A DNA stretch of 64,000 bases from an uncultured beta proteobacterium (GCA_963819965.1 CAWFYA010000002.1:639108-703107), one strand, 5' to 3'; shown: positions 8,702 to 37,180, counted from the first letter of the stretch. Notes: a model not told the origin generated them from the sequence alone. Made by a program: numbers and translations.

Positions 8702-9599
8702 CGCCGCGCACGCATTGCTGCAAGAAGAACTCGTGGCGCCGCCTGGGCCCTGGCGCGAATTCTGGCAGTCATTCTCGCGCAGCCGTGGCGCGATGATCGG
8801 CCTGGGACTGGTGATTGCGTTGATCCTGCTCGCTCTGTTCGCGGAGGCTGTCGCGCCACACCCGCCCAACGAGCAGTATCGCGAATCCTTCCTGACGCCC
8901 CCGGCGTGGGCGGATGGGGGCTCGATGCGGTTCATCCTCGGCACCGATCCCGTGGGCAGGGACATCCTGTCGCGGCTGATCTTTGGCACGCGTCTGTCGC
9001 TGTTGATTGGCCTCATTTCGGTGGTCATTTCGCTCAGCTTCGGCGTTGTGCTCGGATTGGCGGCGGGATATTTCCGCGGTCTGACCGAAACCGTGATCAT
9101 GCGGCTGATGGACGTGATGCTGGCGCTGCCGAGCCTGCTGCTGGCCATCGCGGTCGTGGCGATCCTGGGGCCGGGACTCGCCAACGCGATGTATGCCATC
9201 GCCATCGTGCTGCTGCCACATTACGTCCGGCTGACGCGGGCGGCGGTGATCGGCGAAGCCGGCAAGGAATACGTCGCATCGTCGCGCATTGCCGGCGCAG
9301 GCACGCTGCGACTGATGTTCAATACGATCCTTCCCAATTGCGTCGCGCCGTTGATCGTGCAGGCGACGCTGGGATTCTCGAGCGCCATCCTCGACGCGGC
9401 CGCGCTGGGATTTCTCGGCCTTGGCGCGCAGCCGCCGACTCCCGAATGGGGATCGATGCTCGCCAGTGCGCTTGAATTCATCCAGCGTGCGCCGTGGGTC
9501 GTGACGTTTCCGGGCCTTGCGATCCTCATCACGGTGCTCGCCTTCAACCTGATGGGCGATGGATTGCGCGATGCGCTGGATCCCAAGCTCAAGCGGTAG
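8694..9599 (+). CDS. dppC: Dipeptide ABC transporter permease
   Basis: LGTDPVGRDILSRLIFG, ILPNCVAPLIVQATL, GLRDALDPK. Confidence 0.92.
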   Translation: MPDAAHALLQEELVAPPGPWREFWQSFSRSRGAMIGLGLVIALILLALFAEAVAPHPPNEQYRESFLTPPAWADGGSMRFILGTDPVGRDILSRLIFGTRLSLLIGLISVVISLSFGVVLGLAAGYFRGLTETVIMRLMDVMLALPSLLLAIAVVAILGPGLANAMYAIAIVLLPHYVRLTRAAVIGEAGKEYVASSRIAGAGTLRLMFNTILPNCVAPLIVQATLGFSSAILDAAALGFLGLGAQPPTPEWGSMLASALEFIQRAPWVVTFPGLAILITVLAFNLMGDGLRDALDPKLKR

Positions 9600-9605
9600 A
9601 CGACG

Positions 9606-10667
9606 ATGGCACTGCTCGAGATCCGGAACCTGACCGTCGAATTCGGCGCCGAGAAGGCGCCCTTCAAGGCGGTGGACGGGGTGGACTTCGCCATCGACGC
9701 GGGTGAGATCGTCGGCGTGGTCGGTGAATCGGGTTCGGGCAAGACCGTGACTGCGCTGGCGCTGATGGGCCTCATCGACTTTCCCGGGCGTGTGCGCGCC
9801 GGTTCCATGGTTTTCAACGGCCGCGACCTCACGACGATCTCTGGCGGCGAGCGCCGCAAGCTGGTCGGCAAGGACATCGCGATGATCTTCCAGGATCCCC
9901 TGGCGAGCCTCAATCCGTGTTTCACGGTCGCGTTCCAGTTAATGGAGACGCTGCGCATTCACGGCACAGACGACGAGCGGGGAAATCGTCGCACGCGCCG
10001 CGGGCGCGCGCTGGAACTGCTGGAGCAGGTCGAGATACCCGATGCTGCTGCCAGGCTCGACGCCTATCCGCATCAGCTGTCCGGCGGCATGGCGCAACGC
10101 GTGATGATCGCAATGGCCATTGCGTGCAATCCGCGCCTGCTGATTGCCGACGAGCCGACGACGGCGCTCGATGTGACGGTGCAGGCGCAGGTGCTGGCGC
10201 TGCTAGCGCGACTGCAGCGCGAGCGCGACATGGCATTGATCCTGATCACGCATGACCTGGCGCTGGTGGCCGAGACCGCGCAACGCGTGGTCGTGATGTA
10301 TGCAGGACAGGAGGTGGAGACCGGCCCGGTACCCGCCGTGTTCGAGACGCCGCGACATCCCTATACGCAGGCGCTGCTCGCCGCGTTGCCGGAACACAAT
10401 GAGCATGCCACGCGCCTCAGGGCCATTCCCGGCATGGTGCCGGGTCAGCACGACCGGCCCACCGGCTGCCTGCTGTCGCCGCGCTGTGCCTACGCGTTGG
10501 CGCGCTGCCGCCGGGAGGTCCCGCCGCTGGCCCGCGACGCCGAGGGCGGCCATGAGGAACGCCATGCGCGCGGCGCGCGCTGCCATTTCCCTCTGGATTG
10601 GCAGGGACGGCCGACGGGGGGATGGGCGCCCGAGGTGGCCGGCACCCCAACGGAGCTTCCCGCATGA
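9606..10667 (+). CDS. dppD: Dipeptide ABC transporter ATP-binding protein
   Basis: Walker [33 protein letters not shown]-terminal Cys cluster. Confidence 0.92.
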
Positions 10668-11638
10668 GCCCGGGATTGCTCGAAGCGCGCGCCCTCGCGC
10701 GGCACTATTCCGTGTCACGGGGGTTGTTTCGACCCAGAGGGCTCGTCCGAGCGCTAGACGGTGTCTCGTTCACGGTACGCGAGGGCGAGACGCTGGCCGT
10801 CGTCGGCGAATCCGGCTGCGGCAAGTCCACGCTTGCGCGGCAGGTGACGATGATCGAGCGGCCGACCTCCGGGCAATTGCTGCTCGACGGGCACGACGCG
10901 GGCACCGCCGACGCGGCGCTGCGCAAGCGCCTGCGCCCTCTGGTGCAGATGGTGTTCCAGAATCCCTATGCTTCGCTCAATCCGCGCAAGAAGGTCGGCA
11001 CCTTGTTGACCGAGCCGCTGACGATCAATTCCGGGCTGGATGGGAAGGAACAACGGGACGCCGCGCGCGCGATGATGGACAAGGTGGGACTGCGGCCGGA
11101 ACACTACGGCCGCTATCCGCACATGTTCTCCGGCGGCCAGCGGCAGCGCATCGCTGTCGCGCGTGCGCTGATGCTGCGGCCCCGGCTGGTGGTCGCGGAC
11201 GAACCCGTGTCGGCCCTCGACGTGTCCATCCAGGCGCAGGTTCTGAATCTGCTCATGGACTTGCAGCAGGAAATGGGCATTGCATACCTCTTCATCTCGC
11301 ACAACCTGCAGGTGGTCCGCCACATCGCCGACGCAGTACTGGTCATGTACCTGGGAAAGACCGTCGAGGAGGGGCCCAAGGCGACGATCTTCGCCCGTCC
11401 GGCACATCCCTATACTCGTGCGTTGCTGGCGAGCACGCCGTCGCTTGCCGCGGCCGGGCGCGGCGCGCGCGTGGCGCTCGGCGGCGAATTGCCATCGCCG
11501 CTGAATCCCCCTTCGGGCTGCGCATTCCACAAGCGCTGCCCGCATGCGATCGCAAGGTGCGTGACCGAGGTGCCCGCGCTGGCGCCGCTTGGCATCGCCC
11601 GCGTTGCCTGCCATCGGGCCGCCGAGCTCAATGCGTGA
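10664..11638 (+). CDS. dppF: Dipeptide ABC transporter ATP-binding protein
   Basis: [26 protein letters not shown]; start taken at the ATGA overlap with the dppD stop. Confidence 0.9.
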
Positions 11639-27678: not shown

Positions 27679-28737
27679 TCAGGCGCGCCTGCGCCGTTTC
27701 GGGTTGGCGGCAACCAGGCACAGTTCGGTGAAAAGCATCTGCGCGCCGATTTGCGCGGTATTCGTGGTGGCGTCGTATTGCGGCGCCACTTCGACCACGT
27801 CGCCGCCGATGATGTCCAGGCCGGCCAGTCCGCGGAAGATGGCGAGCGCTTCGCGCGGCGTCAGGCCGCCGACTTCCGGCGTGCCGGTGCCGGGTGCGAA
27901 GCCGGGGTCGATGCCGTCCACGTCGAACGTGACGTAGACAGGTCCGTTGCCGACAACTGCGCGCGCCTTGGCAACGACCGCAGCCGTACCCATGGCGGCG
28001 ACCTCCTCCGCGTGCAACACCGTCATGCCCGAGTCCCGGGAAAATTCCCACAGGAACTCGGCGCCGCCGCGGATGCCGATCTGGATTGAGCGCTCCGGAT
28101 CGAGAACGCCGGCGAGGACCGCTTGGCGAAAGGGTCCGCCGTGGTGAAACTTCGATCCCTCGAATTCGCCGGCTGTATCGCAGTGGGCGTCGATGTGAAC
28201 CATGCCCACGGGACGATCGCGTCCGAGTGCCTTCAGGATCGGAAAGGTGATTGAGTGGTCGCCACCGACCGCCAGCGGGATCACGTTGGCGTCGTGCAAG
28301 CGGTGAAAGTACGCCTCGATGTCGGCCATGCACTGGTCGAGCGAGAAGCGGCTGGCCATCGGCACGTCGCCGACGTCGGCGAACTTCAGCAGTCCGGCGG
28401 GCGCCAACTTGAGGACGTGCTCGTAGGGACCGATGCGTTCGACGTTGCGCATTGCGCGCGGCCCCAAACGCGCACCCGCGCGGTTGGTCACGCCCAGATC
28501 CATCGGCACGCCGACCAGCGCGACGTCGATGTCGCCGAACTCGTCAGGGCCACCCGCGCTCGCCGCAGCCAGCATGGGCGCGCCGAGGAACGTCGGGACA
28601 CCGGCAAACGGCCAGGCGCGCCGCTTGTTGTCGATGAAGGCCCTTGCACCGACGGCGGCGAACGCCGGATCGAAAATATTCCCGCCTTTGGCGTTCGCAT
28701 ATTTCTTGCGCAGCGCATTCAAGCGGGTCTTGTTCAT
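27679..28737 (-). CDS. Ureohydrolase (agmatinase/guanidinobutyrase family)
   Basis: GGDHSIT, HIDAHCD, FDVDGIDPGFAPGTGTPEVGG; start MNKTRL after SD AGGA. Confidence 0.9.
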   Translation of the reverse strand: MNKTRLNALRKKYANAKGGNIFDPAFAAVGARAFIDNKRRAWPFAGVPTFLGAPMLAAASAGGPDEFGDIDVALVGVPMDLGVTNRAGARLGPRAMRNVERIGPYEHVLKLAPAGLLKFADVGDVPMASRFSLDQCMADIEAYFHRLHDANVIPLAVGGDHSITFPILKALGRDRPVGMVHIDAHCDTAGEFEGSKFHHGGPFRQAVLAGVLDPERSIQIGIRGGAEFLWEFSRDSGMTVLHAEEVAAMGTAAVVAKARAVVGNGPVYVTFDVDGIDPGFAPGTGTPEVGGLTPREALAIFRGLAGLDIIGGDVVEVAPQYDATTNTAQIGAQMLFTELCLVAANPKRRRRA

Positions 28738-28819
28738 GTCCTGGCCGTGTCCCGGGGCGGGAACAGGATTGCACGGCGGCGAACGCCACGGCAAGTGGTA
28801 CAAGCAAGCAGGCGTGGCC

Positions 28820-28853
28820 AAAAAAAGAGGGGTTACACTTGCGCGTAACCCCT
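28820..28853 (-). terminator. Rho-independent terminator after tRNA-Val
   Basis: AGGGGTTAC/GTAACCCCT 9-bp stem followed by a T run on the minus strand. Confidence 0.85.
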
Positions 28854-28863
28854 TGGTTCAGTG

Positions 28864-28938
28864 TGGTGGGCATTGCTGGGTTCGAACCAGCGACCCCTCC
28901 CGTGTGAGGGGAGTGCTCTACCGCTGAGCTAAACGCCC
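28864..28938 (-). tRNA. tRNA-Val(CAC)
   Basis: GGGCGTTTAGCTCAGCGGTAGAGCACTCCCCTCACACGGGAGGGGTCGCTGGTTCGAACCCAGCAATGCCCACCA; 75 nt. Confidence 0.96.
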
Positions 28939-29032
28939 CGCGAACCCAGACAGGAAGCCGGATTTAACCATAGGGCGGAAAGCAGGGTCAAACCGACGTC
29001 GCGCCCGTGTCCAGGCCTGTCATGGACAAAAA

Positions 29033-29049
29033 CGCACCGTATTGGTGCG
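29033..29049. promoter_or_regulatory. NtrC-type enhancer palindrome
   Basis: CGCACC-GTATT-GGTGCG versus consensus TGCACC-N5-GGTGCA; about 95 bp upstream of a sigma54 -24 box. Confidence 0.7.
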
Positions 29050-29132: not shown

Positions 29133-29149
29133 TTGGCTCGCCGCTTGCT
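29133..29149 (+). promoter_or_regulatory. sigma54 (-24/-12) promoter
   Basis: TTGGCTCGCCGCTTGCT: GG-N10-GC with TTGC at -12; 31 bp before ATG 29181. Confidence 0.75.
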
Positions 29150-29180: not shown

Positions 29181-30596
29181 ATGTCCTCCCTCCCTTTTGA
29201 CGAAATGTCGGTTCCCGGTGGCGGGGTCCGGTCCCACTACCGTGCGTTCGCTGACTGGCTCGAGCGCACGGACAGCGCCCACATAGCGCAAAAAAGGGAC
29301 GAGGCGGAACGTGCCTTCCACCGCGTAGGAATCACCTTTGCGGTTTATGGCGAAGACGCGGGAACCGAGCGCCTCATTCCGTTCGATATCGTGCCGCGGA
29401 TCATTCCCGCCGACGAGTGGCGCATTCTCGAATCCGGATTGAAGCAACGCGTGCATGCGCTCAATCTGTTCCTGGCGGACGTCTATCACGACCAGAAGAT
29501 CCTCAAGGCCGGTGCCATTCCCGCCGAACGTGTGCTGGGCAACACGCAGTTCCGGCGCGAGATGGAGGGGATGGACGTCCCAGGCGGCATCTACGCGCAC
29601 ATTGCCGGCGTCGACCTCGTGCGCGCCGGCGCAGGCGAATACTATGTGCTCGAGGACAATCTGCGCGTGCCCTCCGGCGTGTCCTACATGCTCGAGAATC
29701 GCCGTATGATGATGCGGCTGTTTCCCGAACTCTTCGCCACCCGCTCGATCCGCCCGGTCCAGCACTATCCGGATATGCTGCTCGAGAACCTGCACGCGGT
29801 CGGGCCGCAGGGCGAGGAGACACCGACGGTGGCGGTGCTCACGCCCGGCGCCTACAACTCGGCCTACTACGAGCACGCGTTCCTGGCGCAACAGATGGGC
29901 GTCGAACTGGTCGAGGGCCAGGATCTCATGGTCCAGAACGACGCGGTGTACATGCGCACGACGCGCGGGCCACGTCGCGTGCATGTGATCTATCGCCGGG
30001 TCGACGATGACTTCCTCGATCCCCTGGCGTTTCGCCCCGACTCGATGCTGGGCGTGCCGGGATTGTTCGGGGCGTATCGCGCGGGCAGGGTGACGCTCGC
30101 CAACGCGATCGGCACCGGTGTCGCGGACGACAAGTCGATCTATCCGTTTGTCCCCGCCATGATCAAGTTTTACCTGGCCGAGGAGCCGATCCTCCACAAC
30201 GTGCCTACCTTCATGCTGTACAAGCCGAAGGACTGCGAATACGCACTCGCCAATCTCGACAAGCTGGTGGTGAAGGAGGTACACGGCGCGGGCGGCTACG
30301 GCATGCTCGTGGGACCGGCGGCGACCGTTGCCGAGCGCGACGCGTTCCGCCGGCGCATCGTGGCGGAACCGGACAAGTACATCGCGCAGCCGACGCTGGC
30401 ACTTTCGACGTGCCCCACCTTCGTCGAGGCGGGTCTCGCGCCGCGACACATTGACCTGCGGCCCTATGTGCTCTCCGGCAAGGACGTCGACCTGGTTCCC
30501 GGCGGCCTGACCCGGGTTGCGCTGCGGGAAGGATCGCTGGTGGTCAACTCGTCGCAGGGCGGCGGCACCAAGGACACCTGGGTCCTGGCCGACTAG
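29181..30596 (+). CDS. Circularly permuted type 2 ATP-grasp protein
   Basis: GITFAVYG, PFDIVPRII, VLEDNLRVPSGVSY, LANAIGTGVADDK, GSLVVNSSQGGGTKDTW; start MSSLPFDEM. Confidence 0.9.
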   Translation: MSSLPFDEMSVPGGGVRSHYRAFADWLERTDSAHIAQKRDEAERAFHRVGITFAVYGEDAGTERLIPFDIVPRIIPADEWRILESGLKQRVHALNLFLADVYHDQKILKAGAIPAERVLGNTQFRREMEGMDVPGGIYAHIAGVDLVRAGAGEYYVLEDNLRVPSGVSYMLENRRMMMRLFPELFATRSIRPVQHYPDMLLENLHAVGPQGEETPTVAVLTPGAYNSAYYEHAFLAQQMGVELVEGQDLMVQNDAVYMRTTRGPRRVHVIYRRVDDDFLDPLAFRPDSMLGVPGLFGAYRAGRVTLANAIGTGVADDKSIYPFVPAMIKFYLAEEPILHNVPTFMLYKPKDCEYALANLDKLVVKEVHGAGGYGMLVGPAATVAERDAFRRRIVAEPDKYIAQPTLALSTCPTFVEAGLAPRHIDLRPYVLSGKDVDLVPGGLTRVALREGSLVVNSSQGGGTKDTWVLAD

Positions 30597-30624
30597 CGCG
30601 AACGGGCGATAACGGGAAACGACC

Positions 30625-31590
30625 ATGACTGCCATGCTTTGTCGCACCGCAAACGAGCTCTTCTGGATGGCGCGGCACATCGAGCGCGCGGAAAACACCG
30701 CGCGCCTGCTCGACGTCACGTATCGCACATCGCTGCTGCCCTACCAACTCCAGGAGCCGGGACTGGCCTGGGCGGAGCCGTGGTCGGTGCCGCTCATCGC
30801 CACCGGCGTGGCCACGCCGTACTACCAGAAATACCCCGAGCTCAATTCCGAGAACGTGCTCCGCTTCATGATCATGGACGACGACAACCGATCGTCGATC
30901 TGGAGTTGCCTGTGGGCAGCCCGCGAGTCCGCTCGCAGCGTGCGCGGCGCCATCACCTCCGAGATGTACGAGGACCTGAACGGCGCATGGATAGAAATCC
31001 GCGACCACGGCTTCGAGCGGCTGAACGACGTCGGCGTGTCGGATTTCCTGGACTGGGTGAAGATGCGCTCGCATTTGTTCCGCGGCGTGACGTTCGGCAC
31101 GATGCTGCGAGACGAGGCGTATCACTTCATCCGCCTGGGCACGCACATCGAGCGTGCCGACAATACCGCGCGCATTCTCGACACCAAGTATCACATCCTG
31201 CTGCCGTCCACGGCGGACGTCGGCGGCGCGGTGGACTATTACCAGTGGGCGTCGCTGCTGCAGTCGCTGTCCGGGTTCGAGTCCTACCGCAAGATCTACA
31301 GCGACGTCATCTCGCCGCGGCGGGTGGCCGAACTTCTGGTCCTGCGCGACGACATGCCGCGCTCGCTGCACAGCTGCCTCAATTTCATCGACGACACGCT
31401 GGAACTGCTGTGCGACGACAATAGCCGCGAACTCAGGCGGCAGGCCGGGGAGCTGCACGCGCGGCTGCACTACGGCAAGACGGAGGAAATCATCCGCTTC
31501 GGCCTGCACGAATACCTGATGGACTTCCTGTCGCGCGTGTCCGCTCTGGGTGGCGAGATCAGCCGCCGCTTCCTGGTGCCCACCTACTAA
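30625..31590 (+). CDS. Alpha-E domain protein
   Basis: LFWMARHIERAENTARLL and a second GTHIERADNTARILD (ER motifs), PRSL. Confidence 0.9.
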   Translation: MTAMLCRTANELFWMARHIERAENTARLLDVTYRTSLLPYQLQEPGLAWAEPWSVPLIATGVATPYYQKYPELNSENVLRFMIMDDDNRSSIWSCLWAARESARSVRGAITSEMYEDLNGAWIEIRDHGFERLNDVGVSDFLDWVKMRSHLFRGVTFGTMLRDEAYHFIRLGTHIERADNTARILDTKYHILLPSTADVGGAVDYYQWASLLQSLSGFESYRKIYSDVISPRRVAELLVLRDDMPRSLHSCLNFIDDTLELLCDDNSRELRRQAGELHARLHYGKTEEIIRFGLHEYLMDFLSRVSALGGEISRRFLVPTY

Positions 31591-31696
31591 ACAACCCGAC
31601 CGCTGCGGTAACGCCGCCCGCGCTGGCTGCGGGACGGCAAATCACCAGCCGCGACATCCTTCCTTTACCCATGCTGCCTTTCGCCGTGCGCACTCC

Positions 31697-32428
31697 ATGA
31701 CCTACTGCGTTGCCATGTCCCTCGATGCGGGGATGATTTTCGCCTCGGACTCCCGCACTAATGCCGGCGTCGACCAGATCGCCCGCTTTTCCAAGATGAA
31801 GGTGTTCGCCAAGGACGGCGATCGCGTCATCGTCACGTTGTCTTCCGGCAATCTCGCGGTCACGCAGAGCGCGCTCAACAATCTCGACCATCACACCCGC
31901 AAGGATGAGAACGAACTCAGCATCTGGAACGCCCAGTCGATGTTCGACGTGGCCCGCCTGGTCGGCGACTCGCTGCGCGAAATCAAGGCGCGCGACGGAC
32001 CCTACCTGGCGCAGAACAACATCGATGCGTCGGGCAATTTCCTGATCGGCGGGCAGATCAAGGGTGAGCCCCATCGCCTGTTCAACGTCTATGGCGAGGG
32101 CAATTTCATCGAGGCGTCGCCGGATACCTGCTATTTCCAGATCGGCGAGTCGAAATACGGCAAGCCGGTTATCGATCGCGTGATCAAGCGCAATTCCAGC
32201 CTGCTCGACGCCACCAAGTGCACGGTCGTGTCGTTCGACTCCACGATGCGCTCGAACATATCGGTGGGCCTGCCCATCGACCTGGTGGTATACGAGGCAG
32301 ACAGCCTGACGATCAAGATCCAGAAGCGCATTGACGAGAGCGACCCCTACTTCCAGATGATGCATCGCGAGTGGGGCGAAGGCCTGCGCCGCGTGTTCGC
32401 GCAACTGCCCGACCCGGACTGGACCTGA
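31697..32428 (+). CDS. Proteasome-type Ntn protease (Anbu)
   Basis: MTYCV (Thr1 nucleophile after Met removal), SDSRTNAGVDQI, QIGESKYGKPVIDR, STMRSNISVGLP. Confidence 0.9.
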   Translation: MTYCVAMSLDAGMIFASDSRTNAGVDQIARFSKMKVFAKDGDRVIVTLSSGNLAVTQSALNNLDHHTRKDENELSIWNAQSMFDVARLVGDSLREIKARDGPYLAQNNIDASGNFLIGGQIKGEPHRLFNVYGEGNFIEASPDTCYFQIGESKYGKPVIDRVIKRNSSLLDATKCTVVSFDSTMRSNISVGLPIDLVVYEADSLTIKIQKRIDESDPYFQMMHREWGEGLRRVFAQLPDPDWT

Positions 32429-32451
32429 CGTCGACCATGGGATAACTCCAG

Positions 32452-35400
32452 ATGGCCATTCGCGTAGCACTGTCTCACCGCACGACCTACCGCTTCGATC
32501 GCCACGTCGCGATCGGGCCACATGAGATCCGGCTGCGCCCGGCGCCGCATTGCCGCACGCCGATTCTGAGCTATTCCCTCAACGTCCTGCCGGAACCGCA
32601 TTTCCTCAACTGGCAGCAGGATCCCTACGGCAACTGGGTCGCGCGTTTGGTATTTCCTGAGCGCGCCGGGCTGATGGAGATCGAGGTCGACCTGGTGGCG
32701 GACCTCACCGTCATCAACCCTTTCGATTTCTTCGTCGAGCCGTACGCTGAGGAGTATCCGTTCGCCTACGCGCCGGCGCTGGCCAAGGAACTGATCCCCT
32801 TTCTCGAGACGGCGCCGCTCGGACCGCGCCTGGCGGCGTGGCTGGAGGAATTCCGCAAGACCATCCTTCCGGGCGAAAGTCCCGTGCTGATGCTGGTGCG
32901 GCTCAACCAGCTGCTGCAGGGCCAGATCAAGTATCTCGTGCGCATGCAGCCTGGCGTGCAGACGCCCGAGGAAACGCTGGGCAATGCCAGCGGCTCCTGC
33001 CGCGACTCCGGCTGGCTTCTGGTCCAGATCATGCGGCACCTGGGACTCGCGGCACGCTTCGCGTCCGGCTACCTGGTGCAGTTGGTCGCCGACATCAAGG
33101 CGCTCGACGGGCCTTCGGGCACGACCAAGGATTTCACCGATCTGCACGCGTGGGCCGAGGTCTTCATCCCGGGGGCGGGCTGGATTGGCTTCGACCCGAC
33201 CTCGGGGCTGCTGGCGGGCGAGGGACATATTCCGCTTGCGTGCACGGCCGATCCAGGGAACGCGGCACCGGTGATCGGCTACACCGATGTGGCCGACGTC
33301 GAGTTCACGGTCACGATGAGCGTCACGCGTATCCACGAGGACCCGCGCGTCACGCTGCCCTACACCGACAAGCAATGGCAGGCCATCGACCGGCTGGGCG
33401 AGCAGGTCGACGGCGACCTCGTGACCGATGACGTGCGCCTGACGCAAGGCGGCGAACCGACTTTCGTGTCCATCGATGACATGGAAGGCGCCGAATGGAA
33501 CTACACCGCGCTGTCGCCGAAGAAGCGGCAACTGGGCGAAATACTGATCAAGCGCCTGAAGGGCAAGTTTGCGCCGGAAGGCTTCCTGCACTATGGACAG
33601 GGGAAGTGGTATCCGGGCGAGCCGCTGCCACGCTGGGCGCTTGGCGTGTTCTGGCGCACCGACGGGGTACCGCTTTGGCGCGGCGACACGCATGTCGCGG
33701 ATACCTCCGGAAAGGGGACTACGACGACGGCCGCGGCGCAGACCTTTGGTCAGCAGCTCGCGGCAAGGTTGGGATTGCCCGCGTCGCTACTCATCACGGC
33801 CCATGAAGATGTGCCCAAGCTTTTGCAGGAGGAGGCTGCACTACCGATTAACGCCGATCCGCTGGCCGCCGACCTGACCAAGCCCGACGAGCGTGCGCGC
33901 CTGGCACGGTTACTCGCTGCCGGACTCTCGTCACCGGCGGGATTCGTGCTCCCGCTCAAGGGCAGGCTCGACGACGATGCGGCAATCGCCTGGGAATCGA
34001 GCCCCTGGCCGCTGAAACGGCAGCATCTGTACGCGGTGGCGGGGGATTCGCCATTGGGCCTGCGCCTGCCACTCAGTTCCCTGCCGCAATTGTTGCCTGA
34101 CGAAACCGAACACGATTTTCCCGTCGATCCCTTCGCGCCGCGCAAACCCTTGGCGGGCAACACGTCGCGGGCCGCGAAGGATTCCAAGGTGCGCGGCAGC
34201 GAGCCCCGCGAAGTCATCAAGACCGCACTGACGTTGCAGGTGCGCGATGGCCACCTCTATGTATTCATGCCGCCGCTCGAGTTGCTCGAAGCCTACGTTG
34301 CGCTGCTGGCGGCAATCGAGGACGTCGCGCGCGAATTGGACACGCCGGTGGCCATCGAAGGCTACACGCCGCCGCGCGATCCCCGCGTGAAAGTGCTGAT
34401 GGTGACACCCGACCCGGGCGTGATCGAGGTCAACATCCACCCGGCCTCGTCGTGGCGCGACCTGTTGGCCACGACCGAGACACTGTATGAGGAGGCGCGA
34501 CAAGCGAGACTTGGCACCGAGAAGTTCATGCTCGACGGCCGGCACACGGGTACGGGCGGCGGCAATCATGTCACGCTGGGCGGCGCCACGCCGGCGGACA
34601 GTCCGCTGTTGCGTCGGCCCGATCTTTTACAAAGCCTCATCACGTATTGGCAGAATCATCCGGCGCTGTCCTACCTGTTTTCCGGCATGTTCATCGGCCC
34701 GACCAGCCAGGCGCCGCGCGTCGATGAGGCGCGCGACGACCGCTTGTACGAGCTGGCTATCGCTTTCCAGCAATTGCGGCGAAAGCATGCGGCGGGGAGC
34801 GAATCCCCGCAGCCATGGCTGGTCGACCGCCTGCTGCGGCACATGCTGACAGACCTCACCGGCAATACGCATCGCTCGGAATTCTCGATCGACAAGCTGT
34901 ACTCACCCGACAGTTCCACGGGCCGCCTGGGCATCCTCGAGTTCCGCGCGTTCGAAATGCCGCCGCATGCACGCATGAGCGCGGTGCAGGTGCTGCTCCT
35001 GCGCGCGCTCGTGGCGCGATTCTGGCGCGATCCGTACCGTGGCGAGCTCATCCCCTGGGGCACCGCATTGCACGATCGCTGGCTGCTGCCGCATTTCGTT
35101 GCCGCCGACATCCGCGACGTGGCGGACGACCTGAATCGCGCGGGCTATGCTTTCGATCCGGCCTGGTTCGAGCCATTCGTGGAATTTCGCTTCCCGCGCT
35201 TCGGCACAGCCACCTACGCGGGTGTGATGCTGGAGTTGCGGCAGGCGATCGAACCCTGGCACGTGCTGGGCGAGGAGGTGGCGCTCGGCGCGACCGCGCG
35301 TTATGTCGATTCGTCGATCGAGCGCCTCCAGTTCAAGGCGGTCGGGATGACCGGTGGCCGGCACGTTGTCACCTGCAACGGCCGCGCGCTGCCGCTGACT

Positions 35401-35739
35401 CCCACAGGCGTCCCCGGCGAGTTCGTGGCGGGCGTTCGCTTCCGCGCGTGGAACCCGCCGTCGGCGCTGCACCCGACCATCGGCGTACAGGCGCCACTGA
35501 CCTTCGACTTGATCGACACGTGGTCGCAGCGCGCTCTGGGCGGCTGCACGTACCACGTCGTGCATCCGGGCGGCCGCAACTACGACACGTTTCCGGTCAA
35601 TGCCAACGAAGCCGAGGCGCGACGCGTCGCGCGTTTCTGGGCGCACGGGCACACCCCCGGCCCGATGGTCGTGCATCCGGAACAAACCAATCCGGCCACG
35701 CCGGCCACGCTCGATTTGCGTTGGCAGCCGGCCCGATAA
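32452..35739 (+). CDS. Transglutaminase-domain protein fused to DUF2126 putative amidoligase
   Basis: N-terminal bacterial transglutaminase domain, GSCRDSGW and DLHAWAEV (Cys/His), then [36 protein letters not shown]. Confidence 0.88.
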
Positions 35740-35782
35740 CGTCCTAACGGTAAGATGCGTCCTTTTGCCGAGGACGACTCGA

Positions 35783-37180
35783 GTGAGTGAAGTCAGGAGC
35801 CGGTTTGCCCCCAGCCCGACGGGCTATCTTCACTTGGGCAGCGCGCGCACCGCGCTATTCGCGTGGGCCTATGCGCGGCATTTCGGCGGCAAGTTCATCC
35901 TGCGCGTCGAGGACACGGACGTCGAGCGCTCCACGCCGGCCGCCGTCAAGGCAATCTTCGATGCGATGGCCTGGCTCGGGCTCGACTACGATGAAGGCCC
36001 GTTTTTCCAGATGCAGCGCATGGACCGGTATCGCGAGGCGCTGGCGCAAATGCTCGCCGCCGGACAGGTTTATCGTTGCTACATGAGCCCCAAGGAGCTC
36101 GATGCGTTGCGCGCCGAGCAAACTGCGCGGGGAGAAAAGCCGCGCTACGACGGACGCTGGCGCCCCGAGAACAGCGTCGGCAAAACGCCACCACCGGACG
36201 CGAAACCGGTGCTGCGCTTTCGCAATCCGGACACCGGCGCGGTGGCATGGGACGACGGGGTAAAGGGCCGCATCGAAATCGCCAATGCGGAATTGGACGA
36301 CCTGGTGATCGCTCGCCCGGACGGCACGCCCACCTACAACTTTTGTGTCGTGGTCGACGACATCGACATGCGCATCACCAACGTGATCCGCGGCGACGAC
36401 CACGTCAACAACACGCCGCGGCAGATCAACATTTTCCGCGCGCTCGGTGCGCAGCCGCCTGCCTATGCGCATGTTCCCACGGTACTGGGTGAGGACGGCG
36501 CCAAGCTGTCCAAGCGCCATGGCGCGATGGGCGTAATGGAATACGAGGCGCAAGGTTTTCTGCCCGAAGCATTGATCAATTTCCTCGCCCGCATCGGTTG
36601 GGGGCACGGCGACGAGGAAATATTCACGCGCGAGCAGTTGGTGCAGTGGTTCGACCTCCCGGGGATCAGCCCGGCGCCGTCGCGCTTCAACGCCGACAAG
36701 CTGAAATGGGTGAACCAGGAGCACATGAGACGCCTGCCGGACGCAGAGCTTGGGCGGCGCCTCGTCCCGTTCCTCGTGCGCGCGGGACTCGATCCTGCCG
36801 CCGGACCCGATGCGGGCGCCGTGGCCGCGCTGCTGCGCGACCGTGCCGACACGCTGGTGGCGATGGCCGATGCGGCGCATTACCTGTATGCCACGCCCAC
36901 GGTCGCCGCCGAGAAATTGGCGGCGCAGGTCAATGACGCCATCCGTCCCGCTCTGGTCGAGCTGCACGCCGAATTCGCCAGCCTGAACTGGACGCGGGAG
37001 GCGCTGATGGCAGCACTCAAGGCCGCCGCCGCGCGTCATGGCTTGAAGCCGCCGCCGATCATGATGGCGGTGCGCATGCTGGTGGCGGGGACCACCTCCA
37101 CGCCGGCCATCGACGCCGTGCTGGCCCTGCTGGGACGCGATACGACGTGCGCGCGCATGGCGACTGGATTGGGAATCTGA
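35783..37180 (+). CDS. gltX: Glutamate--tRNA ligase
   Basis: [13 protein letters not shown] (HIGH), KLSKR (KMSKS); GTG start 35783. Confidence 0.95.

Follow-up and report, generated by a model that had tools for sequence, protein, structure and literature searches.

A 64,000-nucleotide (nt) stretch of genome from an uncultured betaproteobacterium (GCA_963819965.1, CAWFYA010000002.1:639108-703107; hereafter the window, from whose first letter positions are counted) carries on its plus strand, at 29181-35739, four closely packed open reading frames (ORFs) separated by gaps of 28, 106 and 23 nt according to ORF listing and translation. They encode a circularly permuted ATP-grasp amidoligase, an Alpha-E protein, the proteasome relative Anbu and, at 32452-35739, a single protein of 1095 amino acids (aa) that joins a transglutaminase-like domain to an 815-aa DUF2126 domain (Table 1). 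An earlier reading of the sequence (the original prediction) had announced four co-oriented genes here, and all four were found on the plus strand within exactly this interval. It had further recognized the set as one proposed from comparative genomics to ligate and remove a tag or to synthesize a peptide, with tag, substrate and product undefined, which is how the published accounts describe it (PMC5666114, PMC6376114). The locus is a real and intact member of this known Anbu system of unsolved function, and does not itself explain the puzzle.

Table 1. Features of the Anbu operon and its promoter region (window positions).
Feature	Position	Strand	Basis
NtrC-type enhancer palindrome CGCACC-N5-GGTGCG, ~100 bp upstream of promoter	29033-29049	+	read from sequence
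Sigma-54 -24/-12 promoter-like element TGGCTC-GCCGC-TTGCT, 47 nt before ATP-grasp ATG	29134-29149	+	consensus match
Circularly permuted ATP-grasp amidoligase, COG2308 type, 471 aa	29181-30596	+	Pfam CP_ATPgrasp_2 E 3.5e-169
Alpha-E protein, COG2307 type, 321 aa	30625-31590	+	Pfam Alpha-E E 4.5e-97, full length
Anbu, Anbu-1 subtype, N-terminal-threonine hydrolase, 243 aa; Thr1 codon 31700-31702	31697-32428	+	PDB Anbu matches
Transglutaminase-like cysteine peptidase domain, residues 1-280 of 1095-aa protein	32452-33291	+	Pfam Bact_transglu_N + Transglut_core
DUF2126 domain, residues 281-1095: predicted glutamine-synthetase-fold carboxylate-amine ligase	33292-35739	+	Pfam DUF2126 E = 0

The four genes and their catalytic residues

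The ATP-grasp protein matches a second Pfam model besides the one in Table 1 (CP_ATPgrasp_1, E 3.8e-157), and its residues 3-471 align with the solved structure PDB 3n6x (E 6e-219), the architecture being near-identical. Because this alignment begins at residue 3, we place the start of the gene at ATG 29181; an in-frame GTG further upstream, at 29007, was rejected as a start, as it overlaps the promoter elements and would extend the protein beyond the alignment with 3n6x. The Alpha-E protein is a tandem repeat (residues 153-252 give an internal self-match) whose translation contains two conserved ER motifs, HIERA(E/D)NTAR, and a sequence search of the PDB found no solved relative of it. None of the four operon proteins matched an NCBIfam model. 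The Pfam and PDB scores of the operon genes are far beyond chance.

Anbu gives only a sub-threshold match to the general Pfam Proteasome model but aligns with each of the five different Anbu sequences of the PDB (5loy, 5nyw, 5nyj, 5nyf and 5lox; E 4.5e-72 to 5.4e-94), the best being 5loy, an Anbu-1 consensus design. Its second residue, a threonine, aligns with Thr1 of the mature PDB chains; there is no propeptide, and the sequence runs M-T1...D17...K32, so that the catalytic residues Thr1, Asp17 and Lys32 are all present when read against the published residue lists (PMC5666114). The Anbu-1 subtype has been defined by an amphiphilic S1 pocket of T20, F30, T48, L52 and S55, the pocket of Anbu-2 being basic (Fuchs 2017, PMC5666114). 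The corresponding residues here are T20, F30, S48, L52 and T55, and we assign the protein, from its sequence, to Anbu-1.

In the fourth protein, Pfam recognizes Bact_transglu_N (E 3.1e-24), Transglut_core (E 6.7e-14) and, over residues 280-1090, DUF2126, a family that it labels a putative amidoligase. The catalytic triad of the transglutaminase-like domain, Cys183 (codon 32998-33000), His232 (33145-33147) and Asp248 (33193-33195), is invariant in a 40-sequence alignment from across the Pseudomonadota. The intact motifs that had been claimed for the two hydrolases, Thr1 of Anbu and the Cys and His of the transglutaminase, are borne out by the PDB and 40-sequence alignments respectively. The identity given to the fourth gene stood in part: the transglutaminase domain that the original prediction named is there, while the 815 ligase-like residues of DUF2126 behind it had been overlooked. 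Across the phylum this giant protein retains 52-61% identity.

The assignment of DUF2126 depends on structural models. A profile search of the PDB with the fourth protein found the transglutaminase part alone, and protein database searches for homologues returned only relatives of at least 75% identity, giving little alignment depth. A model of the full 1095 residues reached a predicted local distance difference test score (pLDDT) of 65; in it, the transglutaminase-like part matched 3isr, a putative cysteine protease of Cytophaga hutchinsonii (Foldseek E 7.5e-10), and also TgpA (6g4h), and matches to glutamine synthetase (GS) were marginal only. The DUF2126 domain was then modelled separately (residues 300-930) on a phylum-wide alignment built from 20 further genomes, with pLDDT 79.4 and a predicted template-modelling score of 0.82. 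All of the top 50 PDB matches of this model are GS-fold carboxylate-amine ligases, among them GmaS (gamma-glutamylmethylamide synthetase, 9qur), GS 5dm3, the YbdK-type 1tt4, arylamine GS 8x6z and the GS homologue 4hpp, with scores that are weak (E 0.012-0.4, probability up to 0.95, template-modelling score 0.25-0.36). The 40-sequence alignment also brings out the invariant DUF2126 motifs GGEPTF, VIEVN, GGGNH, NTHRxE and LEFRxFEMPP, which resemble the motifs for metal, ATP and acyl-phosphate in the GS-fold superfamily. When DUF2126 was compared by hhalign with a home-made GCS2 alignment, the E-x-R motif alone aligned (P 0.018), the alignments being too shallow. Membership of DUF2126 among the GS-fold carboxylate-amine ligases is thus supported by the model, as a predicted and distant relation. 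With this fold assigned to DUF2126, the operon would comprise two ligases and two hydrolase-type enzymes.

Gene order and promoter region among relatives

As read from sequence, the operon holds every component of an Anbu operon, each with intact catalytic residues, and departs from the canonical type in its gene order and in lacking the small transglutaminase. The canonical order is ATP-grasp, Alpha-E, small transglutaminase, Anbu (PMC6376114); the departure from it had not been remarked in the original prediction. We compared the window with its 80 nearest loci, from metagenome-assembled genomes of Casimicrobiaceae-like and other uncultured Burkholderiales, whose Anbu proteins show 64-95% identity. 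Nearly all have the order ATP-grasp, Alpha-E, Anbu, transglutaminase-DUF2126, usually followed by gltX, and a median of about 18 nt separates Anbu from the transglutaminase gene.

In a tree of Alpha-E and Anbu, the window lies inside a fully supported clade of loci with the long fourth gene. Five loci on the tree with a short transglutaminase (L064-L068) form one clade (100/100) nested within the long-form lineages, and the DUF2126 domain was therefore lost or replaced once. In these loci, and also in L061 and L063, a transglutaminase of about 275 aa stands in place of the 1095-aa fusion; that of the sub-clade is 52-58% identical to the N-terminal domain of the window protein. Where short-form loci have upstream sequence (L065, L066 and L068), the sigma-54 motif described below is absent and a TTGAC-containing sequence is found instead.

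Sampling was extended to 401 Pseudomonadota genomes, in which Anbu occurs in 119, DUF2126 in 100 and Alpha-E in 181. By a reading of coordinates, about 60 have Anbu as well as DUF2126. These genes are neighbours in about 17 (12 in the order of the window, five in the reverse) and lie far apart, in separate modules, in about 43. Alpha-E is beside or near Anbu in all of the roughly 24 genomes compared by coordinates. The distance is 0.83-1.26 kb in 20 of them, which we take as the canonical order because it leaves room for a small transglutaminase between the two genes, and in three, the genome of the window included, Alpha-E is directly next to Anbu. The window's genome has one Alpha-E gene and one DUF2126 gene, from which it follows that two modules, separate in most genomes, are merged here. 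Judged from these comparisons of sequence, the layout is an inherited, non-canonical variant found across Casimicrobiaceae-like betaproteobacteria, and it recurs in other Pseudomonadota.

The promoter-like element upstream of the ATP-grasp gene, TGGCTCGCCGCTTGCT at 29134-29149, is the sole match with one mismatch to the sigma-54 consensus TGGCAC-N5-TTGCW in the 64-kb window. Phylogenetic footprinting over the 64 related loci having upstream sequence found the -24/-12 motif in 53, mostly at -44 to -49 from the start codon (shuffled mean 0.2 of 64), and a GCAC-N7-GTGC-type (NtrC) palindrome near -147 in 51, with variable spacers (shuffled mean 0.6 of 64). The conservation of these motifs argues for induction of the operon by nitrogen limitation and so backs the link to nitrogen starvation that the original prediction had implied. 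Such a putative NtrC/sigma-54 promoter fits what has been published for Pseudomonas putida, where the orthologues PP_2685-PP_2688 rank with the genes that nitrogen limitation induces most, an effect credited to NtrB/NtrC (PMC8050072 Table 2; PMC7801951) and also mentioned for PP_2685-2688 in a note added in proof of PMC3235984. An Rfam scan for a leader RNA or riboswitch found nothing but the flanking tRNA. The sequence of the window was found in four soil-metagenome DNA runs and in no RNA runs.

Other elements were seen in the non-coding gaps. A second palindrome, TGTCCA-N9-TGGACA (29008-29028), lies just upstream of the NtrC-type site, between the operon and a divergent tRNA-Val, and its sequence and position are kept in many related loci. 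A candidate internal sigma-54 promoter before Anbu, TGGCTGCGGGACGGCA at 31624-31639, was rejected: it is present in one of 72 loci, the window's own (L001). The gap between Alpha-E and Anbu contains, in most related loci (L012-L080), a conserved c(G/C)(G/C)TA(G/A)AAT 35-70 nt before the Anbu start, which resembles a sigma-70 -10 box and might serve Anbu and the transglutaminase gene as a constitutive promoter inside the operon. In the window this gap (31591-31696) holds only a degenerate copy, acggcaaatcacc at 31633-31645, and in its closest relatives the gap is 15-46 nt long and without the motif.

Just before the operon, on the opposite strand, lies the tRNA-Val(cac) gene (28864-28938), which separates it from an arginase-family gene (27679-28821, minus strand; E 2.5e-84); no evidence of a functional link between the latter and the operon was found. 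Downstream, the glutamyl-tRNA synthetase gene gltX follows 43 nt after the operon (region 35740-37180, probable GTG start 35783), with no terminator predicted in between. Most related loci also have gltX at this place, including ones with a short or missing transglutaminase gene; the adjacency is probably synteny only, and read-through into gltX from the putative nitrogen-regulated promoter is possible. None of the four operon proteins matched the PADLOC models of anti-phage defence, and a reading as a defence system was rejected on that ground.

The same genome has a second Anbu-1-type gene, in a cassette on contig 4 (genome G000, 2260784-2263070, equivalent to 8785-11071 of locus L083) downstream of an Fe/Mn superoxide dismutase gene. 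This Anbu is 58% identical to the first, with Thr1, Asp17 and Lys32 intact. Behind it come a gene of the N-formylglutamate amidohydrolase (FGase) family (PF05013) and one for a small transglutaminase-like protein; neither a ligase nor an Alpha-E gene was found nearby. Of the 401 genomes sampled, one other (G349) has a close orthologue of the FGase-like gene, and there an Anbu gene lies about 3 kb away. In a congeneric genome (G406, contig 195, locus L094), an FGase-like gene resembling that of the second cassette adjoins a weaker match to a GCS2-type (YbdK-like) ligase, a further case of a ligase gene side by side with that of an amidohydrolase.

Possible roles of the operon

The identities of the genes, their catalytic residues and the conservation of both layout and promoter motifs are established in the present analysis. 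For the role of the operon we favour, with a probability of roughly 0.45, a reading in which the ligases add an amino acid or short non-ribosomal peptide to substrates that the hydrolases then strip of it or degrade, in the service of nitrogen recycling. An NtrC-activated sigma-54 promoter would transcribe the operon as one unit when nitrogen is scarce. Two ATP-dependent carboxylate-amine ligases, the circularly permuted ATP-grasp with Alpha-E as its obligate partner and the GS-fold DUF2126, would use acyl-phosphate chemistry to join an amino acid or short non-ribosomal peptide, probably of glutamyl type, to peptide or protein substrates; for DUF2126, an acyl-phosphate intermediate is predicted from the invariant acidic, histidine and arginine motifs. 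The amide-bond hydrolases or transferases would be Anbu, with its Thr1, and the transglutaminase-like domain to which DUF2126 is fused, with its Cys-His-Asp triad, and the modified substrates would be trimmed, removed or degraded by this cysteine domain and the ring-forming Anbu complex. The net outcome would be protein turnover and recycling of nitrogen in starvation. In this scheme we infer the class of substrate, the order of steps and the physiological purpose.

Several observations support it. The domain identities with their intact catalytic residues, the GS fold assigned to DUF2126, the close packing and shared order of the four genes in relatives, the proximity of Anbu to Alpha-E across the phylum and the published induction of PP_2685-2688 all count in its favour. 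Anbu has a proteasome-like fold and assembles into an open dodecameric ring whose sites face inwards, and its Thr1 covalently binds the peptide inhibitors MG132 and epoxomicin (PMC5666114); ring geometry and reactivity together favour peptide or protein substrates. The ATP-grasp protein of the Anbu operon frees inorganic phosphate from ATP (PMC5666114, PMC6376114). The NtrC palindrome and the sigma-54 motif, moreover, keep their positions while the spacers change. Other points weigh against the reading we favour. GS-fold ligases mostly work on small molecules. No tag-sized conserved ORF was found in or beside the operon, whether in the window or in the 80 related loci (the intergenic gaps are too short for a tag gene to be likely to fit), and no AAA+ domain was found in the flanking genes scanned, from ligA to eno, hence no linked unfoldase. 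Co-expression and induction by nitrogen limitation are read from motifs only in this organism, and the pairing of the second Anbu with an FGase-family gene suggests small acyl-glutamate substrates. Published work reports neither peptidase activity of Anbu on standard substrates nor stable complexes between it and the other operon proteins (PMC5666114, PMC6376114). A literature search found no functional studies of the operon later than 2017.

Several of these points suit the main alternative, a possible though somewhat less probable pathway of nitrogen scavenging in which an amide metabolite containing nitrogen is made by the two ligases and broken down by the two hydrolases. Its product could be, for example, a gamma-glutamyl amine, a conjugate of a polyamine or peptide, or a small storage or osmolyte peptide, along the lines of gamma-glutamylation by GS-like enzymes such as PuuA and GmaS. 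The best fold matches of DUF2126 are indeed small-molecule gamma-glutamyl ligases (GmaS, 8x6z, 4hpp), the nearest solved relative of the ATP-grasp, 3n6x, was deposited as a 'putative glutathionylspermidine synthase', and the NtrC regulon consists mainly of scavenging pathways (PMC7801951, PMC8050072); the missing tag gene and unfoldase, and the FGase-family partner of the second Anbu, point the same way. What counts for polypeptides rather than metabolites is the self-compartmentalizing Anbu ring with its peptide-shaped S1 pocket, and the nearest structures of the transglutaminase-like fold are protein-directed cysteine enzymes; nor is any transporter or oxidoreductase of a catabolic route linked at the locus.

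More doubtful is a scheme that would apply if the merging of the two modules behind one NtrC/sigma-54 promoter reflects function. In it, one ligase after the other would work on a common substrate to build a non-ribosomal tag or metabolite of two residues and of glutamyl type, with Anbu as its dedicated hydrolase, and the ligase-less cassette of Anbu, FGase and transglutaminase would be a separate salvage branch of the same chemistry. If it were true, the compact four-gene set would be a minimal, reconstitutable version of the whole pathway.

Tagging of the Pup/ubiquitin type was the original comparative-genomics proposal for the gene set (cited in PMC5666114 and PMC6376114). In its strict form, a small protein encoded elsewhere would be ligated to targets by the GS-fold ligase and send them to Anbu, with the transglutaminase domain removing the tag. 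The combination of a GS-fold ligase with a proteasome homologue does parallel PafA and the 20S proteasome, yet the want of a conserved small ORF in or next to the operon and of an AAA+ partner speaks against such a system, as does the short-form sub-clade, which keeps the rest of the operon without DUF2126, so that this ligase is not an indispensable tagging enzyme. We consider strict Pup-like tagging improbable, and less likely than the small-molecule amide pathway. Equally improbable, in our view, is a plain starvation protease or deamidase, a hypothesis listed in PMC6376114, in which Anbu and the transglutaminase-like domain would release ammonia by degrading or deamidating bulk protein or glutamine residues and the ligases would do no more than regulate or assemble these two. 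An Anbu-transglutaminase pair does occur without a ligase in the same genome, but across the phylum the most constant partners of Anbu are ATP-grasp and Alpha-E, both highly conserved and predicted to be catalytically intact. That the four genes are chance neighbours or an annotation artefact, as their setting among unrelated housekeeping genes with gltX so close behind might suggest, is as good as refuted by conservation: the four-gene order is shared by dozens of genomes, at species level, within the family, the components are linked across the Pseudomonadota, and relatives have the promoter architecture in common.

Anbu operons are among the most widespread bacterial gene sets with a proteasome relative but no known substrate or product, and few pseudomonad genes are induced more strongly by nitrogen starvation. 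The present locus offers several handles on them. The operon is compact and all-in-one, with both types of ligase behind one promoter, and its conserved NtrC/sigma-54 control region allows the inducing condition to be predicted. The sub-clade without DUF2126 serves as a natural loss-of-ligase comparison, and the genome has a further Anbu cassette that is free of ligases. Such comparisons can inform the choice of proteins for reconstitution and of mutants to set side by side.

Comparison with known systems

The canonical Anbu operon is that of P. putida PP_2688-PP_2685, the PA1733 region of Pseudomonas aeruginosa and Yersinia bercovieri (Fuchs 2017, PMC5666114; Piasecka 2017, PMC6376114). With it the window shares the circularly permuted ATP-grasp, Alpha-E, the transglutaminase-like triad and an Anbu-1-type Thr1 hydrolase, and probably also a nitrogen-limitation logic, seen here as conserved NtrC/sigma-54 motifs and there as measured induction. 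It differs in placing the transglutaminase after Anbu, in the short gap of about 0.1 kb that this leaves between Alpha-E and Anbu, and in the replacement of the transglutaminase of about 280 aa by the 1095-aa fusion with a GS-fold ligase. Valas and Bourne in 2008 are said to have been among those who studied the canonical operon.

A second point of comparison is the widespread Anbu-less module of transglutaminase-DUF2126 and ATP-grasp-Alpha-E, which we take to be the type represented by Rv2566-Rv2569c of Mycobacterium tuberculosis. The window has the same giant transglutaminase-ligase protein together with ATP-grasp and Alpha-E, but has Anbu and DUF2126 merged into one operon, in which there is just one ATP-grasp/Alpha-E pair. 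The component list of Iyer et al. from 2009, as relayed by the Pfam description of Alpha-E, reportedly already includes a fusion of a transglutaminase with a COOH-NH2 ligase. Finally, like the actinobacterial Pup-proteasome system (PafA, Dop, Mpa and the 20S proteasome), the operon brings together a ligase of the GS/GCS2-fold class, a Thr1 hydrolase of the proteasome family and an enzyme that would remove amides. It differs from that system in having no Pup-like gene, AAA+ unfoldase or alpha subunit, in an Anbu that forms an open dodecameric ring with no shown proteolytic activity, and in a ligase that is fused to a cysteine peptidase-like domain.

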